NCBI GenBank assembly: GCA_965200925.1
Contig: OZ241738.1
Coordinates: forward strand, 2,507,965-2,571,964
Reading direction: 5' to 3'
Source: Alphaproteobacteria bacterium
GTDB taxonomy: Bacteria > Pseudomonadota > Alphaproteobacteria > UBA828
Length of the DNA stretch: 64,000 bases
The translations under genes were made by a program, and so were the position numbers. Below the pieces are notes generated by a model. The model worked only from the letters and a program-made list of their open reading frames with translations. It made no database searches and was not told the origin of the DNA. Shown here one piece after another: positions 5,643 through 25,375 of this stretch. Numbering within the stretch: the stretch's first letter is position 1; every line of letters begins with the position of its first letter.

Positions 5643-6357
5643 ATGCATACTTTCGTACCCCCCCCCCCCCCCCCCGCGACATGCGCGGACGTCCGAACGA
5701 CGGCTAAGTAGCCTCGGCGGCGCGGTCTCGCCGCGCTTCCTCTTCCCACCCCTTATCGCGGCTTCGCTTCTCGCCGCCGCCTGTGCGCCGACGGGCGTGA
5801 AGAACGCGCCGGGCACGCCCACCGCCTACCAGGACGTCGCCACCTCGGGCTTGGTCCGGGGCACCGGCATCGAGTCCCAGGACATCGCGAGCATGACGGA
5901 CAAGATGGTCCGCCACATGCTCGCCAACCCGGTGCTCGGCAACGCCGCCACACCGCCTCGGGTGATCGTCGACGCCGCCTATTTCGAGAACCAGAGCTCG
6001 CAGCGGCTGAACAAGAACCTCCTCATCGACCGGCTGGCGACCCTGCTCCAGATCGCTGCCAACGGGCGGATCCTGTTCGTCGACCGGGAACACGCCGACA
6101 TGGTGGAGAAGGAACGCAAGCTCAAGCGGGAGGGCGTGACCGACGTCGGCACCACCGGGCTGACGGAGGCGGTGGCGGGCGCCGACTACCGCCTCAACGG
6201 ACGCATCACCTCGCTTGACGCCCGCACCGCGGACGGGATCGTCGAACGGTACATGCAGATCGTCTTCCGCATGACGGACCTGGAGAATGGCATCGTCGTC
6301 TGGACCAACCAGTACGAGTTCAAGAAAGCCGGGCAGGATGATGTCGTCTACCGGTAG
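5643..6357 (+). CDS. LpoB/YcfM-family lipoprotein, frameshifted at the C18 tract as assembled (ORF track start 5797 lacks the signal peptide)
   Basis: Frame of 5797 extends upstream to the lipobox LIAASLLAAAC with no in-frame start; mature part DIASMTDKMVRHML...ADYRLNGRITSL...FRMTDLENGIVVW resembles LpoB/CsgG-fold proteins. Confidence 0.7.
5658..5675 (+). repeat. Homopolymer C18 tract
   Basis: GTA followed by 18 C then GCG, counted directly. Confidence 0.95.
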
Positions 6358-18616: not shown

Positions 18617-19807
18617 TCATCCGGCCGGCGTGGCGACGGGCCTGCCGTGGTGGCGGCCGAGCCACGCCAGGCTTGCCAGCACCGCGACCAGGAACGGGAG
18701 CACGGCGTAGTTCATCGCCTGCCAGCCGAAGGCCTCGTGCGCGGCACCCGAGAGGAGCGCCGCCGCGGCCACGCCAGCGAACACGATGAAATCGTGGGCG
18801 GCCTGGGTCTTCGCCTTCTCGGCCGGGCTGTGGAGATCGGTCACCAGGGTCGTGCCGCCGATGAACAGGAAGTTCCAGCCGACGCCGAGCAGAATCGCGC
18901 CGAGCCAGAAATTGACCAGCGCCACGTCCTGAAGGTTGCAGGCGACGCAGAACGCGATCAGGAGCGCGCCGCTCCCCATCACGGTCGGCGTGCCGAAGCG
19001 CCGGATCAGATGCCCGGTGACGAAGGAAGGGGCGAACATGCCGAGCACGTGCCACTGGATGGTCTGCGCCGATTCCGAAAAGCCGAACCCGCAGAACCGC
19101 ATGGCCAGCGGCGTCGCGGTCATCAGCAGCGCCATCATCGTGTAGCCGATCAGCGAGCCGAGCACCGCGACGACGAAGGCGGGCTGGCGCATGATCACCG
19201 GCAGCGGCCGCCCCTCGCCGCTGCGCTCCTCGGCGCCCGGCGGCGGGATGGTGACGAAGCGGAGCACGACCAGGGTCGTGACGTAGAGCGCGGCCACCGA
19301 GACGTAGACCCCGGCGAAGGCGACGGGCGCCAGCATGTCCATCGACCAGTCGGCGAGCAGCGGCCCGAACGAGGCGACCACGCCGCCGGCGAGCACCAGG
19401 GAGATCGCGCGGCTCTTGAAGGCGTCGCTCGCCGCGTCGGCCGCGGCGAACCGGTAATACTGGGCGAAGCCGTTGAACGCGCCGATCAGCGCCGAACCCA
19501 GGCAGAAGAGGACGAAGCCGCCGGCCAGGATCCCCCAACAGGCGGTGAGCGCGCCGGCGAGCCCGATGAAGGCGCCGACGGTGAAGCCGGCGCGCCGGCC
19601 GATGCGCTTCATCAGGAGCGAGGCCGGGACGGTCGCCGCCATCGTCACCGTGAACTGGATGCCGATCGGCAGCGTCGCCAGCGTCTTCGTCTCGGCGAGG
19701 CCGTGGCCGATCAGGGCGGCGGCGGCGATCACCGCCGAGGTGGAGGTCAGGAACAGCGCCTGGCAGAGCGCCAGCAACGCCACGTCGCGGATGCGCGCCT
19801 CGGGCAT
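18617..19807 (-). CDS. MFS transporter
   Basis: About 12 hydrophobic segments; RIGRRAG, YRFAAAD, IQWHVLGMFAPSF, GVGWNF. Confidence 0.92.
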   Translation of the reverse strand: MPEARIRDVALLALCQALFLTSTSAVIAAAALIGHGLAETKTLATLPIGIQFTVTMAATVPASLLMKRIGRRAGFTVGAFIGLAGALTACWGILAGGFVLFCLGSALIGAFNGFAQYYRFAAADAASDAFKSRAISLVLAGGVVASFGPLLADWSMDMLAPVAFAGVYVSVAALYVTTLVVLRFVTIPPPGAEERSGEGRPLPVIMRQPAFVVAVLGSLIGYTMMALLMTATPLAMRFCGFGFSESAQTIQWHVLGMFAPSFVTGHLIRRFGTPTVMGSGALLIAFCVACNLQDVALVNFWLGAILLGVGWNFLFIGGTTLVTDLHSPAEKAKTQAAHDFIVFAGVAAAALLSGAAHEAFGWQAMNYAVLPFLVAVLASLAWLGRHHGRPVATPAG

Positions 19808-20005
19808 GGCCAAGGATACCACGCCGCGGCCCGCTGGCTTGCGCCGCGCCATCGCGGCGACGGAAGCGAGCCGCTTCACACCCGGCGGGTCAATGGAACT
19901 GCAAGATCGCCGGCGGCGCGCCCGAGGGCATCTGCCGGCGGGCCCTCTTCGACGCCGCCCGCGCCGCCCGCCCCTGAGCCTGTCGAATTTTTTGAAATTT
20001 TTCGC

Positions 20006-20035
20006 TTGACGCGCCCGGCGGGTCGATGCTATCCT
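20006..20035 (+). promoter_or_regulatory. Sigma70-like promoter with extended -10 and AT-rich upstream element
   Basis: TTGACG (20006-11), 18-nt spacer, TGcTATCCT (20027-35); preceded by GAATTTTTTGAAATTTTT in otherwise very GC-rich DNA. Confidence 0.65.
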
Positions 20036-20043
20036 GAACCTAG

Positions 20044-20177
20044 CTCTCCATAGGGGCCTCTCCATAGGGGCCTCTCCATAGGGGCCTCTCCATAGGGGCC
20101 TCTCCATAGGGGCCTCTCCATAGGGGCCTCTCCATAGGGGCCTCTCCATAGGGGCCTCTCCATAGGGGCCTCTCCAT
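20044..20177. repeat. Perfect tandem repeat (VNTR) CTCTCCATAGGGGC, 9 copies plus 8 nt
   Basis: 14-bp unit starting at 20044, 20058 ... 20156, then partial CTCTCCAT; no spacers. Confidence 0.97.
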
Positions 20178-20316
20178 GAAGCGAGAGGAGGCCCCGGCCA
20201 TGTCGTTCTTCGCGAATCGATCCTCCCGTCATGCCGCGCGACTCGGCCCGGCGCTCACGGCGCACCCCGCCCGCCACATTGGCTTTAGTCGCAATCGCCG
20301 CCGGGGAGAACAGACG

Positions 20317-21792
20317 GTGCGCACCGGGAACCCCTTCAAGCTCGCACCCGTCCTCTGTCTCGCACTCGCCATCCCGTTCGCCCTTGCCGCGTGCGGCGGC
20401 GGCGGCGGCACGCCAGCGAAGACGGCACAGAATCCCACGCCCGGCGGTAGCTCGCCCACGCCCACCCCCACGCCCGCGCCCACGCCCCCGGCGCCGCCCA
20501 ACACGTCATACATGGGCGCATCGCCCGGCGCCGCGCCCTTGGCCGCACTCCAACGCATCATTGACAATGAAAATTACGGTCACATCAAATCCCCTGAATT
20601 CAAACGATACAATCGCGGCCCTAGCCTGGAAGACTCCGTAATACACGGCGGAAGTGGGGTACTTCTTGGAACCGAACTGCCGAAAGGCAGCAACGGCAAG
20701 GAATTGAACCGAGACAATCTTGCCCAACATCGCATTCACGAACTCTTCAATATCCAAAGCAGGACGGGTCTTGTCTTTCGCGGCTTGTCACCACTACAAG
20801 AATTGCCAACCATATACCACGACGACATAAACCAGAGATTCGCCAGCGCGGAAATCCTATTCAAGAACGGCTACGGGCTAAACCCTATCGAAAACAATTG
20901 GCCCAACATATCCTCAGCAAAAACGCAGAGGAGTTGCTACCAATACCACATTTCCAACAGCGGCCCATGTAGCGCCAATACCATAAACAACCCCGAAGAC
21001 CAGCTGAAAGTCAGATTCAACGACGCGGGACGTCCCTTATCTCCCCCCATTGAGATGGTCCAATATCGCGATTCCGAAGTAGCCTATCTCGAATATAGCG
21101 CTTTCTTTCTGAATCGAAGCCTCCAAATCAATAGTGCGATAGCGTACCTACCTCTCGATGACCCGATTCCTTCCTACATACGTTCCGGCAACTACCATGC
21201 GGCAAATTTCGGCGGAATGGCCGCAAGCGCAGGGCAAATGACAATTGGCGGCGCCAGCCCTCCCCCAATCGGCACTTGGAAAGGCGGAATGCTTGGCGTG
21301 AAGTATCCACTATCTCCGCGTAATAGTGGGGGCGTCGACCACTCAGCCCAACCGTGCCGCCATCCCGTAAGTAACGGATGCACATACAGCGAGGCAACGG
21401 CAGTCTGGGACGACCTAAGCCGGCTAACTGGCGACGTTACCTTTACCCTTATGGCCGGCGTTCCTCACAGCGAAGACCCGGGCGGCAGGTATACAGGCGA
21501 CGGACAATATCCTTTTTCAATCACTTTTTCGAACATATCCGACCAAGGGGTTGCCGATTGGACTTGGACAGGCGGGATAGAGTATGACGACGTACAGGGC
21601 GCCAAACTCATACCGATTGATTTGGCAGGCCATGCCACCGATGAACCCCCATCCTTTGGCGCAAATGGGAACAAAGGAGGCTTCCTCGGCGGCTTCTACG
21701 GCCCGAACTACGAAGAGATTGGCGGTACTTTTGTTCGCCAACCCGATAACGAATTCGAGATAACCGGCGCTTTCGGCGCAAGGAAGCAATAG
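20317..21792 (+). CDS. Surface lipoprotein with TbpB/Slam-substrate-like C-terminal beta-barrel (alternative in-frame starts 20176, 20200)
   Basis: Lipobox FALAAC-GGGGG, Pro/Thr linker, C-terminal GGFYGPNYEEIGGTF...ITGAFGARKQ; visibly lower GC than flanks. Confidence 0.75.
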   Translation: MRTGNPFKLAPVLCLALAIPFALAACGGGGGTPAKTAQNPTPGGSSPTPTPTPAPTPPAPPNTSYMGASPGAAPLAALQRIIDNENYGHIKSPEFKRYNRGPSLEDSVIHGGSGVLLGTELPKGSNGKELNRDNLAQHRIHELFNIQSRTGLVFRGLSPLQELPTIYHDDINQRFASAEILFKNGYGLNPIENNWPNISSAKTQRSCYQYHISNSGPCSANTINNPEDQLKVRFNDAGRPLSPPIEMVQYRDSEVAYLEYSAFFLNRSLQINSAIAYLPLDDPIPSYIRSGNYHAANFGGMAASAGQMTIGGASPPPIGTWKGGMLGVKYPLSPRNSGGVDHSAQPCRHPVSNGCTYSEATAVWDDLSRLTGDVTFTLMAGVPHSEDPGGRYTGDGQYPFSITFSNISDQGVADWTWTGGIEYDDVQGAKLIPIDLAGHATDEPPSFGANGNKGGFLGGFYGPNYEEIGGTFVRQPDNEFEITGAFGARKQ

Positions 21793-21812: not shown

Positions 21813-22031
21813 ATGGCGAACACAGACTCGACAACTCCCCGGGGAAGGCTTGCGACCAAGGCGGATTTCCGGCTTGGCATGGGGATATTCGCCGTTCTCG
21901 TTATCGGCGCCATCGCCTTGATGCAGGTCGATTTTGGCACTGCTTCAAAAGCCGCGCCCCAAACCGCAGGCACCACCTCAACTTTTGCAACCGGGACGAT
22001 CACGCATTGCCCCCCGAGTGAGTCGCGCTAG
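21813..22031 (+). CDS. Small membrane protein with LATKAD motif (DUF1640-related)
   Basis: LATKADF followed by one transmembrane helix GMGIFAVLVIGAIALM. Confidence 0.55.
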   Translation: MANTDSTTPRGRLATKADFRLGMGIFAVLVIGAIALMQVDFGTASKAAPQTAGTTSTFATGTITHCPPSESR

Positions 22032-22035
22032 CGCC

Positions 22036-22248
22036 ATGGCAGACAAACCCTTCGATACGCTTGCCGCGGCCCAGAAGCTCAAAGCGGCCGGCATCGCCGA
22101 AGCCCAAGCCGAAGCGATTGCCGAAACCCAAGCCGAAGCCGCACGCGCCGCCCGTAACGGGTTAATGACCAAGCTCGAGTTTTGGTCCAGCATCGCCGGG
22201 GTTACGCTCGCCATCCTCATCGCCGCCGCCGTCGGGAAGCTGGGCTAG
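22036..22248 (+). CDS. DUF1640/CCDC90-like membrane-anchored protein
   Basis: FDTLAAAQKLKAAGIAEAQAEAI head motif, LMTK neck, C-terminal TM helix. Confidence 0.75.
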   Translation: MADKPFDTLAAAQKLKAAGIAEAQAEAIAETQAEAARAARNGLMTKLEFWSSIAGVTLAILIAAAVGKLG

Positions 22249-22258
22249 CCCCCGGACG

Positions 22259-23290
22259 TCATTCGGCTTCCATCAGCCCCGCCAGCCCGGCCGCGCGCGC
22301 CGGGTCCATGCCCCCGCCTACCATGCTTTGAAACGCCCGCGCCCGGCCGCTCAAATCCGAAGCGAACAGGCCGTCGAAGGACAGCGCCAGGCCCGGCGTG
22401 TCGAGCTTGCGCGCCAACTCGACAGCGAGAATGTCGCCAAGGGGTTGCACGGTGCTATGCAGGAAGCGGCGCCAGGCTTCCCGCAAGCTCGTTCCGTCGC
22501 CGCCGTTCACAAGCTCCACAGGCACCCCACAGGCCGCGAGAATCGCCAAGGCCGCCCCGTCACGCAGGGAGACCAGGGGTTGGCCAGGCGCGGCCCCCAG
22601 GCGCCGCACGTCCCAATCTCGCGTGCCTTGCCGCGGCCCCTCCGCATCGTCGCCCCAGCCGCCTACCATCGTCGGCACGAGCGCCGTCTTGCCCCTCAGC
22701 GCCGTTATCACCGCTCGCAACGCGGTCGTGCTTTCGGGGTTGTCGTCATCGTCTTCGGCGTCCGCGTCGGGGTCGTCCGGCACCGGTATGAGATTGCCCC
22801 GCGGCCCGGCGGCTTCGTCGCCAAGCGCAAGCTCCGTTTCCGCCAGCACGCGGCCGGTGAGTGAAGCGCCTTGCAGCGGCCCGCGCCCGCGCCAGGGTTC
22901 CAGGCTCGGAGTCGACCAGCGAAGATGAACGACGTCGGCCGCCGCCGCGCGGATCACCCGCGAGTCCGAAGGCCCCGTGAGCGTCAAGTTGTAGCTCCAG
23001 GTTTCCTCGTCCGGCGTCGCGCCGTGGACGTCCCAATGCGAACACGGATCAAGACGCAGACCGCCGCGCCGGTAGGCGAGCCTGCCTACCCATTCGCCGC
23101 GCGTCACAAGCTCGCGCCCGGCGGTATGCAGCACCGCCGGGGTCACGGCCGCCGTCGCCGGCGTCGCCGGCGTGATGGAAGCCGCCGCCAGCGCCCGGCC
23201 GACGATACCGGCCGCCGCTTCCGCCGCCGCAATGATGGCGTCGGCATACGAGATCGATTGCCGCCGTTCCGGCTTTCTGAATGGCCACAT
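22259..23290 (-). CDS. Phage portal-like protein (HK97-type), orphan
   Basis: GGAGGT RBS; MWPFRKPERR start, RELVTRGE, DVVHLRW..PWRGRGPL, ILAACGVPVELV, RRFLHSTVQPL...ELARKL, DLSGRARAFQSMV. Confidence 0.75.
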   Translation of the reverse strand: MWPFRKPERRQSISYADAIIAAAEAAAGIVGRALAAASITPATPATAAVTPAVLHTAGRELVTRGEWVGRLAYRRGGLRLDPCSHWDVHGATPDEETWSYNLTLTGPSDSRVIRAAAADVVHLRWSTPSLEPWRGRGPLQGASLTGRVLAETELALGDEAAGPRGNLIPVPDDPDADAEDDDDNPESTTALRAVITALRGKTALVPTMVGGWGDDAEGPRQGTRDWDVRRLGAAPGQPLVSLRDGAALAILAACGVPVELVNGGDGTSLREAWRRFLHSTVQPLGDILAVELARKLDTPGLALSFDGLFASDLSGRARAFQSMVGGGMDPARAAGLAGLMEAE

Positions 23291-23347
23291 GGCTACCTCC
23301 GTAGCCAGAGGGTAAGATGACCGGGACCGACGGGCAGGGAGTGTGAC

Positions 23348-25375
23348 ATGGCGGCCTATCCGCACCTTTTCTCGGAATGGCAGATCCGCGAGACGACGAT
23401 CAAGAACCGGGTCGTCTTCCCCCCCACCTGCCCGAGCTGGGTCTCGGACCCGTGGAACGGGCTCTTCACCGACATGGCCACCGCCTACTACCGCGAGCGG
23501 GCGAAGGGCGGAGTCGGGCTCATCATCATCGGCGCGGCGCACGTCCACCCGAGCTCGATCATGGCGCCGCTGCTCATGCCGCAGCTCTTCGACGACCGCC
23601 AGATCGAGCCGCTCTCGCGCATCGCCCGCGCGGTCCACGCCGAGGGCTGCAAGCTCGCCATCCAGCTCTGGCATTCGGGCGTGCGCGGCTTCCCCACCTA
23701 CAAGCAGGAGGCCGCCTACGACCCGGACGCCACCTGGTATACGCTCTCGCCGAGCCAGGTGCCGCTCGGGGAGTTTCCCGGCGCCTCGACGCCGAAGGAG
23801 CTGGACGAGGACGAGATCGAGGAGCTGCTGGCGGCCTACGGGGCGGCGGCCGCGCGCGCGCTCGCCGCGGGGCTGGACGGCGTGGAGCTGCATCTGAGCC
23901 ACGGCTACCTGCCCTGGCAGTTCATCTCCCCCCTCTACAACAAGCGCACCGACCGCTGGGGCGGCTCGCTGGAGAACCGCCTGCGCTTCCCCGTCGAGGC
24001 ACTGGCGCGGATGCGCGCGGCGGCGGGCGAGGAAAAATTCGTCGGCTACCGCATCAACTCCACCTCCTTCTGGCCCGGCGACCTCGACATCGACGACGTG
24101 CGCACCATCGTGGCCGCGATCGAGCGCCGGGCGGACGTGGATTACGTCAACGTCTCGGCGGGCGTCCACCACGCCTTCATCCACACGCCGATGGAGTTCG
24201 AGGCCGGCTGGGAGCGCGGCTACGCGCGCAAGATTCGCGAGGTGTCGTCGAAGCCGGTGCTGCTGGTGGGCCGCATCACCACGCCGGACGTGGCCGAGCG
24301 CCTGCTGAAGGCCGGCGACGGCGACGCCATCTGCCTTGCCCGCCAGCTCTTCACCGACCCGTACTGGGCGAAGAAGGCGCAGGAGAACCGCGCCGACGAC
24401 ATCCGCTCCTGCGTCGCCGCCAACTTCTGCTGGAAGAGCGTGAGCCGGGGCGGGCGGGTGCAGTGCATCTACAACCCGGCCGTGGGCCGCGAGGCGACGT
24501 GGGGCGAGGGCACCCTCGACCGGGCGCCGGTGCTCAAGCGCATCCTGGTGATCGGCGGCGGCCCGGCGGGACTGGAATACGCGCGCGTCGCCGCCGCCCG
24601 CGGGCACGCCGTGACGCTCTACGAGGCCGAGGCCGAAACCGGCGGCCACGTGCGCGTGCAATCCCTGCTGCCGAGCCGCGCCGAATACGGCGAGATCGGT
24701 CGCTGGCTCGGGGCGCAGGCGGAGAAGAACGGCGCGACGATCGTCACCGGCGCGCCGGTGACGGAGGAGGATCTCGACCGGGCGCTGGAGGCCGTGGCCC
24801 CCGACCACGTGGTGGTGGCCACCGGGTCGCGGGTGGCGGTGGACGGCTTCCAGGGCTGGACGGGCGAAGCCCTGCCGGGCTGGGAAACGGGCAATTGCGT
24901 GGGCTGGGACGACGTGGCGACGGGGCGGGCGAAACCGCGCGGCACGGTCATGGTGCTGGACGATCTCTGCGACGTGGTGGCCCCGCTGACGGCCGTCGCC
25001 GCCAGGGAGGGGGGCGCGGACGCGGTGACCCTGGTCACGCGCTGGCCGATGGTCGGCATGGAAACCATCCTCGACGTCTATCTCGACTGGATCCTGCCGA
25101 AGCTCTACCGCGCCGGCGTGGAAGTGTGCGTGGACCATTTCGTGCGTCGCATCGCGGGCCGCGCGGTCACGCTCTACAACGTCCACCACGAGGAGGCGGA
25201 GCGCGTGCTGGAGGCGGACTGGATCGTCATGGCGACGGGGCGACGCTCCGAGAACGGCCTCGGCAAGGCGGTGGCCGCCCGCGGCCTTTCCGTCGAGACC
25301 ATCGGCGACGCCACCGCCCCCCGCTCCGCCTACGAAGCGGTCTACGAAGGCCACCGCCAGGCCCGCAAAATCTGA
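23348..25375 (+). CDS. Old Yellow Enzyme-type FMN/FeS/FAD oxidoreductase (trimethylamine dehydrogenase-like architecture)
   Basis: KNRVV, ERAKGGVGLII, GVELHLSHGYL, NKRTDRWGGSLENR, VIGGGPAG. Confidence 0.92.
   Translation: MAAYPHLFSEWQIRETTIKNRVVFPPTCPSWVSDPWNGLFTDMATAYYRERAKGGVGLIIIGAAHVHPSSIMAPLLMPQLFDDRQIEPLSRIARAVHAEGCKLAIQLWHSGVRGFPTYKQEAAYDPDATWYTLSPSQVPLGEFPGASTPKELDEDEIEELLAAYGAAAARALAAGLDGVELHLSHGYLPWQFISPLYNKRTDRWGGSLENRLRFPVEALARMRAAAGEEKFVGYRINSTSFWPGDLDIDDVRTIVAAIERRADVDYVNVSAGVHHAFIHTPMEFEAGWERGYARKIREVSSKPVLLVGRITTPDVAERLLKAGDGDAICLARQLFTDPYWAKKAQENRADDIRSCVAANFCWKSVSRGGRVQCIYNPAVGREATWGEGTLDRAPVLKRILVIGGGPAGLEYARVAAARGHAVTLYEAEAETGGHVRVQSLLPSRAEYGEIGRWLGAQAEKNGATIVTGAPVTEEDLDRALEAVAPDHVVVATGSRVAVDGFQGWTGEALPGWETGNCVGWDDVATGRAKPRGTVMVLDDLCDVVAPLTAVAAREGGADAVTLVTRWPMVGMETILDVYLDWILPKLYRAGVEVCVDHFVRRIAGRAVTLYNVHHEEAERVLEADWIVMATGRRSENGLGKAVAARGLSVETIGDATAPRSAYEAVYEGHRQARKI

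Follow-up and report, generated by a model that had tools for sequence, protein, structure and literature searches.

To our knowledge, repeat-driven contingency loci are found almost only in host-adapted pathogens and mostly use units of 1-7 nucleotides (nt). The described system closest to the locus considered here is hmw1A of Haemophilus influenzae. The (ATCTTTC)n tract in the 5' untranslated region (5'-UTR) of hmw1A and hmw2A is transcribed and forms pairs with a G-rich part of the leader (-108 to -54); the hmw1A tract is cut by RNase III and sets expression inversely to repeat number (PMC12721329). The stretch analysed here (the window) comprises 64,000 nt of an alphaproteobacterial genome (GCA_965200925.1; contig OZ241738.1, positions 2,507,965 to 2,571,964 of the forward strand) and contains, ahead of a gene for a TbpB-like surface lipoprotein, a perfect tandem array of 14-bp units. 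The units carry short segments, or arms, that are complementary to the Shine-Dalgarno region (the ribosome site) downstream of the array. Promoter, array, ribosome site, start codon and first signal-peptide codons form a cassette which was duplicated to this locus, which recurs in front of other genes and in other genomes, and in which the number of arms differs between near-identical copies. In the reading that we favour, and to which we would give about an even chance, the array is the variable part of this portable 5' expression cassette, and the changes in arm number brought about by slippage would affect translation initiation at the ATG. The features of the locus are the following.

19898..19977, plus strand: remnant of the 3' end of holA, found by blastn, at the 5' boundary of the duplicated module
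19985..20035, plus strand: A+T-rich stretch and sigma70-like promoter (TTGACG 20006-20011, 18-nt spacer, TATCCT 20030-20035)
20044..20177, plus strand: perfect tandem array, 14 bp x 9.6, unit CTCTCCATAGGGGC, with nine GGGGCCTC arms, from 20053 (arm 1) to 20165 (arm 9), each of which complements the ribosome site
20165..20195, plus strand: hairpin predicted by folding, in which the last arm (20165-20173) pairs with the ribosome site (GGGGCCTC.. / ..GAGGCCCC)
20186..20202, plus strand: Shine-Dalgarno sequence and start of the cassette (AGGAGG 20186-20191, spacer CCCCGGCC, ATG 20200-20202)
20200..20261, plus strand: start of the cassette signal peptide, first ~20 codons (MSFFANRSSRHAARLGPAL..), the end of which is the 3' edge of the duplicated module
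20220..20230, plus strand: downstream CCUCC-containing stretch, the partner of the ribosome site in model states with an even number of arms, conserved in the paralog and in G016
20273..20316, plus strand: leader native to the lipoprotein gene, which includes a separate Shine-Dalgarno sequence, GGGGAGA 20303-20309
20317..21792, plus strand: low-GC lipoprotein gene with a GTG start, lipobox LAAC, Pro/Thr linker and TbpB-like C-terminal strand region
18617..19852, minus strand: divergent MFS transporter gene (Pfam MFS_1, E = 1.2e-20; ATG at 19852), a neighbour of the cassette and not a part of it

The results from Tandem Repeats Finder (TRF; period 14, 9.6 copies, 100% matches, 0 indels, score 268) bear out the 9.6 perfect units given for the array in a preliminary description of the window. 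Words within two mismatches of CTCTCCATAGGGGC occur nine times in the window, all of them within the array (expected 0.35; 0 of 100 shuffles reach nine), and a two-unit word has a single site in the source genome (G000; one contig of 3,548,566 bp, 69.6% G+C). Genome-wide, TRF returned 787 rows, 10 of which have a period of at least 5, at least 4 copies and at least 95% matches; among these filtered rows the window array has the third-highest score and is the sole 100% perfect array scoring >60. The arm GGGGCCTC, present in nine copies, is exactly complementary to GAGGCCCC at 20188-20195, a segment that overlaps AGGAGG, and this complementarity, noted in the preliminary description, is kept in all related copies. 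Three further elements of that description also hold. The sigma70-like promoter TTGACG-18-TATCCT, with 9 of 12 matches and a TG before the -10 box, is the sole such site in 19500-20600 (shuffles average 0.1 sites); the array sets in ~8 nt past the -10 element, and the spacing from promoter to first arm is kept in related cassettes. The ATG at 20200 is in frame with the lipoprotein gene, with 39 codons and no stop before GTG 20317, and the hairpin at 20165-20195 is present in minimum-energy folds. On the minus strand the array would encode MERPLWRGPYGEAP repeats in the frame of the MFS gene, a reading that was rejected because other cassette copies have no minus-strand gene at that place. Two other long arrays of G000 have a CCGACCACTG core in common and no relation to the cassette: one, of 21 bp x 8.9, is located inside an open reading frame (ORF; C1:506281-506467), and the other, of 14 bp x 7.8, directly follows an ORF (C1:3348675-3348783).

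The 5' part of the locus has a paralog in the same genome. Based on blastn, window positions 19898-20093 share 87% identity with G000:C1:1740345-1740154, and positions 20137-20261 share 93.6% identity with G000:C1:1740192-1740070. The paralogous locus begins with the end of a 345-amino-acid (aa) holA gene (TIGR01128, E = 6.8e-35), which is followed by the same A+T-rich tract, a TTGACG box, three 13-bp units TTCATGGGGCCTC and then ..CATGAAGCGAGAGGAGGCCCCGGCCATG. There, a 452-aa protein (P0001) with no match in Pfam or NCBIfam starts at the ATG with a clean Sec signal peptide, MSFFANRSSRRAARLGPALAAASALALGGAAAQA, and the homologous ATG in G016 likewise opens a bona fide Sec signal peptide. Window positions 20273-20387, for their part, share 76.5% identity with a remnant of a lipoprotein start at G000:C1:3211545-3211647. 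Because the upstream stretch matches the holA-adjacent cassette, while the sequence from 20273 onward matches a lipoprotein-start leader, the window locus is a chimera, in which a duplicated 364-bp module (19898-20261; holA tail, promoter, array, ribosome site, ATG and ~20 codons) stands before a foreign lipoprotein gene. ATG 20200 is the start of the duplicated cassette and not the lipoprotein's own, and the native leader, GGGGAGA and GTG 20317 have been kept. The duplication provides an example of a horizontally acquired gene capturing a resident expression module.

Genomes were searched for three consecutive arms, with the pattern read backward as a control, which gave 0 matches in each genome. 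The three-arm pattern is present in 4 of the 49 genomes surveyed in the order, all of them in the window's genus (G000, G001, G011 and G016). A sample of 401 genomes from the whole class has it in two, G000 and G271, and it is present in 2 of the 25 genomes (G271 and G437) of the second alphaproteobacterial family, to which G271 belongs. The common architecture consists of a TTGAC -35 box, 13/14-nt GGGGCCTCT units, AGGAGGCCC, an ATG and a signal peptide. In 26 of 29 cassettes, the distance from TTGAC to the first arm is 45-47 nt; the exceptions are L107, with TTGCAT at 38 nt, and two cassettes without the box, one of which has an N gap and the other a rearrangement. In G016, the ortholog of the 452-aa protein (89% identity) has nine 14-bp units in the same place, which are built from a different unit, CTCTTCTACGGGGC. 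The more distant P0001 homologs L024 (70%) and L025 (61%) have another 5' region and no array. The cassette of G001 (contig C428), with an N gap inside the array, precedes a 670-aa two-lobed TbpB-like protein. The cassettes of G271 have 4, 4 and 8 arms, in the order TTGACA-17-TAGGCT, arms, ..ACAGGAGGCCC(C/T)..ATG and signal peptide, and one of them encodes an N-terminal extension followed by a lipobox, as in the window.

The largest set was found in G437, where the junction motif occurs in 20 places. Seventeen regions cover 18 of these and, together with three further arrays, give 21 cassettes, with 3, 5, 5, 6, 7, 7, 7, 8, 9, 9, 13, 13, 14, 14, 14, 14, 15, 17, 21, 29 and 33 arms. All 21 have ..ATGA(A/C)G..AGGAGGCCC.. 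downstream and then an ATG opening a signal peptide; in both G271 and G437 the ATG is located 4-7 nt beyond AGGAGGCCC. The mature proteins of G437 are mostly ~200 aa long and belong to several families, such that the common part is limited to residues 1-12 to 1-36; one cassette ORF ends directly after the signal peptide, and none of the 15 cassette proteins scanned, out of 20, was matched by Pfam. At L191 (G437:C1:3017850-3019250), an 8-arm array abuts the reverse complement of the ORF start of another cassette (MPFNAIRAF..), the two cassettes being joined head to head at the arm/ribosome-site inverted repeat, and at L193 (G437:C1:3570950-3573450) two cassettes with 7 and 33 arms are oppositely oriented. 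These arrangements suggest recombination between arms and ribosome sites. Furthermore, both of the G437 cassettes compared in this respect (L171 and L173) have a conserved stretch, ..CTGACACATGAATCCTT(G/A)CGTCACC.., before the -35 box and ~70-100 nt upstream of the first arm, which could be a putative regulator-binding site.

Among the metagenome contigs, 80 of at least 118 stretches matching the arm were examined, and three are clear leader-type arrays: L041 with at least 10 arms (signal-peptide protein), L113 with at least 9 arms (lipoprotein) and L107 with 2 arms (lipoprotein). The remaining stretches examined are chance two-arm matches or other repeats, and a 31-nt pattern across the cassette ATG had 0 matches in the metagenome scan. 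No Rfam family was found at its gathering score, the sole match being RF00627 (16.2 bits vs 70; E = 0.49), and the full-text literature searched, a limited collection, contained no account of leader arrays or cassettes built on GGGGCCTCT.

The number of arms changes rapidly. Arrays are internally perfect or nearly so, and between loci the units differ in the 4-6 nt after GGGGCCTC; homogeneity within arrays combined with differences between loci is what frequent slippage leaves behind. Among the genes of G437, those with 98.8-100% identical products have 14, 13 and 7 arms, a pair at 98.5% protein identity has 9 and 14 arms, and a pair at 93-97% has 14 and 8 arms. This fast turnover between near-identical paralogs agrees with the slippage-driven change of arm number that was put forward in the preliminary description.

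The arm, AGGGGCCUCU, is self-complementary when G-U pairs are admitted, and it can pair perfectly with the ribosome site. In the minimum-energy fold of the 189-nt leader (-93.1 kcal/mol, z = -2.47), arms 1-8 are paired with one another and arm 9 is paired with the ribosome site. The nine anti-Shine-Dalgarno arms of the preliminary description are present and complementary, but the pairing of arms with arms had been left out of its account. In an equilibrium fold model of leaders with 0-15 units, in which the opening cost was taken from the ribosome site through the AUG, odd numbers of units give the arm:ribosome-site hairpin, with an opening cost of 14.5-15.3 kcal/mol. With even numbers, the ribosome site pairs with the downstream CCUCC (20220-20230), and the cost is 10.5-10.9 kcal/mol, compared with 10.85 kcal/mol without an arm. 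In this range the opening cost has no trend with length and alternates by parity instead. Among 27 natural leaders, 25 have an arm paired with AGGAGGCCC in the minimum-energy structure, whatever the copy number. Mean opening costs are 13.2 kcal/mol for odd (n=18) and 10.4 kcal/mol for even (n=9) arm numbers, the copies being related; single values range from 6.0 to 17.7 kcal/mol, and, on reading the table of the 27 leaders, no trend against arm number is visible. On the ribosome-site side, the variants GGCUCC in G016 and GGCCCU in G271 and G437 are C-to-U changes that are compatible with wobble pairing. In toto, equilibrium folding supports, as far as such a model goes, an occlusion of the ribosome site by the array and a modest effect of parity, of ~3-4 kcal/mol.

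Based on these results, we propose the following mechanism. The cassette comprises the promoter, presumably transcribed 13/14-nt units bearing GGGGCCUCU, the ribosome site AGGAGGCCC(C), the ATG and the first signal-peptide codons. It was copied from the holA-adjacent secreted-protein gene and placed in frame before a horizontally acquired gene for a TbpB-like surface lipoprotein. Replication slippage alters the number of arms quickly, as seen between paralogs; the arms can pair with one another or with the ribosome site, and a change of one unit may shift the balance between a tight hairpin and a weaker alternative. The expected behaviour would resemble an odd/even or threshold switch more than a smooth rheostat, and the surface-protein gene would thereby be a contingency locus. 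The anatomy, the duplication, the family and the turnover of the cassette are well established, whereas transcription of the array and an influence of arm number on protein output are inferred. A regulatory role of the cassette is plausible, and the case for function is made because the architecture is conserved, not from covariation.

Several results weigh against an effect of arm number on translation. The 60-nt hairpin (-20.2 kcal/mol) is ordinary for its composition (z = -0.02; 89 of 200 shuffles are as good). In the model no copy number leaves the ribosome site largely free (its mean unpaired probability is 0.09-0.18), and arm number may therefore matter little. Natural copies are of both parities (18 odd and 9 even) and are related, not independent. 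No double compensatory change was seen among the compared cassettes, and covariation support is weak because all changes at the ribosome site are single-sided. The lipoprotein gene retains its own ribosome site and GTG 20317, from which synthesis independent of the cassette ATG is possible. Part of the window stretch is contained, as Logan contigs (k=31), in 21 public runs, among them runs labelled sponge metagenome; X1, X3, X4 and X8 were compared with the locus. There are no RNA runs among the 21, and the Logan contigs end 30 nt inside the window array, where copy number per cell or strain is unreadable. A contig of X8 joins the paralog-like upstream flank to position 20180 via 31 letters without an arm, which weakly suggests that an armless allele exists and that the arms are dispensable there. 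In X4, a contig has the promoter variants T20023C, C20029A and T20032C. The depth ratio between a 44-nt cyclic repeat contig in X1 and the flanks was not used, as the flanks themselves differ ~6.7-fold (291.7 vs 43.8).

The occlusion of the ribosome site at every number of units, the absence of a monotonic dependence on copy number in the model and the armless contig of X8 would also be expected if only the arm/ribosome-site hairpin were functional, as a constitutive translational damper or 5' stabiliser, and the array were a tolerated, slippage-prone expansion of its 5' arm. The range of 2-33 arms, with no visible optimum, points the same way. However, no single-arm cassette was found among the 30 examined, L041 and L113 included, the minimum being the two arms of L107; the arrays have been kept in at least three lineages and, in one genome, at 21 loci, and the parity difference of 3-4 kcal/mol in the model remains to be accommodated. 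The perfect internal homogeneity indicates ongoing turnover, though alone it is no proof of selection. We regard this neutral account as a tentative alternative, and on balance an unlikely one. The strict form of parity control, in which arms pair two by two, an odd count leaves one arm clamping the ribosome site, an even count leaves it with a weaker partner and single-unit slips toggle translation, also appears unlikely to us, and rather more so. If true, up to 21 such cassettes before unrelated secreted proteins in one genome would together form a combinatorial switchboard, genome-wide in reach, for the secreted and surface proteins of sponge-associated Alphaproteobacteria, and duplication of the promoter-array-start module would have spread it.

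The preliminary description had favoured graded control, in which every added arm shifts output stepwise through competition for the ribosome site and a longer leader. There is a precedent in HMW1A, the expression of which is inversely proportional to the number of 5'-UTR repeats in H. influenzae (PMC12721329), and longer self-paired arrays would give longer double-stranded RNA, a possible substrate of RNase III. Nevertheless, the fold model, an equilibrium model without kinetics or RNase effects, alternates with parity rather than grading, and 25 of the 27 natural leaders have an arm paired whatever the count, with no visible trend in opening cost; we consider a graded response improbable. 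Of that description as a whole, the anatomy, the complementarity and the turnover stand, while graded control is not supported. Control at the level of DNA, with the repeats as protein-binding sites or promoter-proximal structure acting on transcription, or with a transcription start downstream of the array, would fit the position of the array over the initially transcribed region and the run of four G on the non-template strand at each 13-14 nt. It is opposed by the location of the sole promoter-like site upstream of the array, by the 13/14-bp period, which places successive sites on different faces of the helix, and by the conserved partner of the arm, the ribosome site with its GGCCC flank, which is sensible at the RNA level. 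No RNA G-quadruplex was found in the quadruplex-aware minimum-energy fold, and we judge such control to be highly improbable. Short-read assemblies do break in arrays of this kind, as seen in the N gap of G001:C428 and in the truncated Logan contigs. An assembly artefact, or an element serving the divergent MFS gene, is nonetheless barely credible: contigs from two independent studies (X1 and X4) enter the array from the MFS (left) flank, X1 contains the 44-nt cyclic repeat contig, G000 is a single 3.55-Mb contig, like arrays are present in five other genomes and in metagenome contigs, and the other cassette copies compared have no MFS neighbour.

The lipoprotein gene downstream of the cassette has a GC content of 0.51-0.56, compared with ~0.70 in its surroundings, and is present in a single copy in G000. 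From GTG 20317 it encodes a signal peptide, read by eye as ..AIPFALAAC GGGGG with the lipobox cysteine. The Pfam model TbpB_B_D matches only the last 39 residues (27.7 bits; cut-off 26), and the NCBIfam model slam_lipo reaches 18.4 bits (cut-off 80). Across the genus, any match to the lipoprotein was found in 6 of 21 genomes, and the only relative beyond the signal peptide and C-terminal strands is a gene of G016 with 37% identity. Two Slam (PF04575) genes of G000 score above the cut-off (C1:3313026 and C1:3430738), and neither adjoins the lipoprotein gene. A lone phage-portal-like fragment (window 22259-23410, minus strand; Pfam Phage_portal, 39.2 bits, cut-off 39.1) is located next to the low-GC lipoprotein gene and to the small ORF at 21934-22248, which encodes a coiled coil; this suggests that the lipoprotein may have arrived on a mobile element. 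A C18 tract (5658-5675) is located elsewhere in the window between ATG 5643 (MHTFV-PPPPPP..) and the lipobox ..LLAAAC of a 186-aa ORF (GTG 5797 to 6357). Read by hand, this ATG is out of frame with the lipoprotein at 18 C and in frame at 19 or 16 C, and the locus (5643-5800) is a candidate for classical homopolymer phase variation. A run of ~19-20 G is also present ~60 nt upstream of the truncated lipoprotein signal-peptide remnant at G000:C1:~3211480-3211650. This remnant is the homolog of window 20273-20387, and after it comes a coiled-coil gene that resembles the one at window 21934-22248. Such homopolymer tracts at lipoprotein gene starts of G000 would fit an organism that uses repeat-based switching.

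Hairpins such as those of RNA thermometers and translational operators keep the 30S ribosome from binding by pairing AGGAGG with a strand that contains CCUC. The cassette likewise has a CCUC-type strand opposite AGGAGG, but the known hairpins have a single, fixed anti-Shine-Dalgarno strand, whereas that of the cassette is amplified in a hypermutable array. The Vpma, Vsp and Vlp systems of Mycoplasma comprise variable surface lipoproteins which share a module of promoter, leader and signal peptide and are expressed stochastically. They resemble the cassette family in that many different surface proteins stand behind one conserved 5' module, yet they switch by site-specific inversion or through a promoter homopolymer, and not through a 13/14-nt anti-Shine-Dalgarno array.

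As in hmw1A and hmw2A, the repeat of the cassette is located between the promoter and the start of a surface protein, is predicted to pair with a complementary downstream part of the leader, and varies by slippage; expression changes post-transcriptionally in the H. influenzae system, and may do so here. The two differ in the unit (7 nt in hmw, 13/14 nt here), in the pairing partner (a separate G-rich region in hmw, the ribosome site itself here) and in self-complementarity, which is a property of the cassette arms and not of the hmw repeats (PMC12721329). The hmw mechanism depends on RNase III, while the cassette is known from sequence and folding, and hmw comprises one or two loci, compared with a cassette common to up to 21 unrelated genes (PMC12721329). 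The G-repeat in the tlpB (hp0102) leader of Helicobacter pylori, the target of RepG, is likewise a variable mRNA-leader repeat, with gradual post-transcriptional control; it is a homopolymer without complementarity to its own ribosome site, and the control is exerted through a small RNA acting in trans (PMC8295292). In pil1 of Streptococcus gallolyticus, the number of GCAGA repeats in the leader decides downstream expression via RNA structure, and these repeats are located within a leader peptide and act by a transcription terminator, that is, by attenuation (PMC3894217). Unlike pil1, the cassette requires no leader peptide, and no terminator-like site was found in the window locus. If arm number does control translation, the cassette would represent a novel design for the stochastic control of expression, one that is easy to test, and it would be a pointer to the secreted proteins that these bacteria need to vary. 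Compared with all of these systems, what is new is a 13/14-nt unit that is itself an anti-Shine-Dalgarno strand, carried in a portable promoter-leader-signal-peptide cassette and placed before many unrelated secreted and surface proteins in uncultured Alphaproteobacteria.

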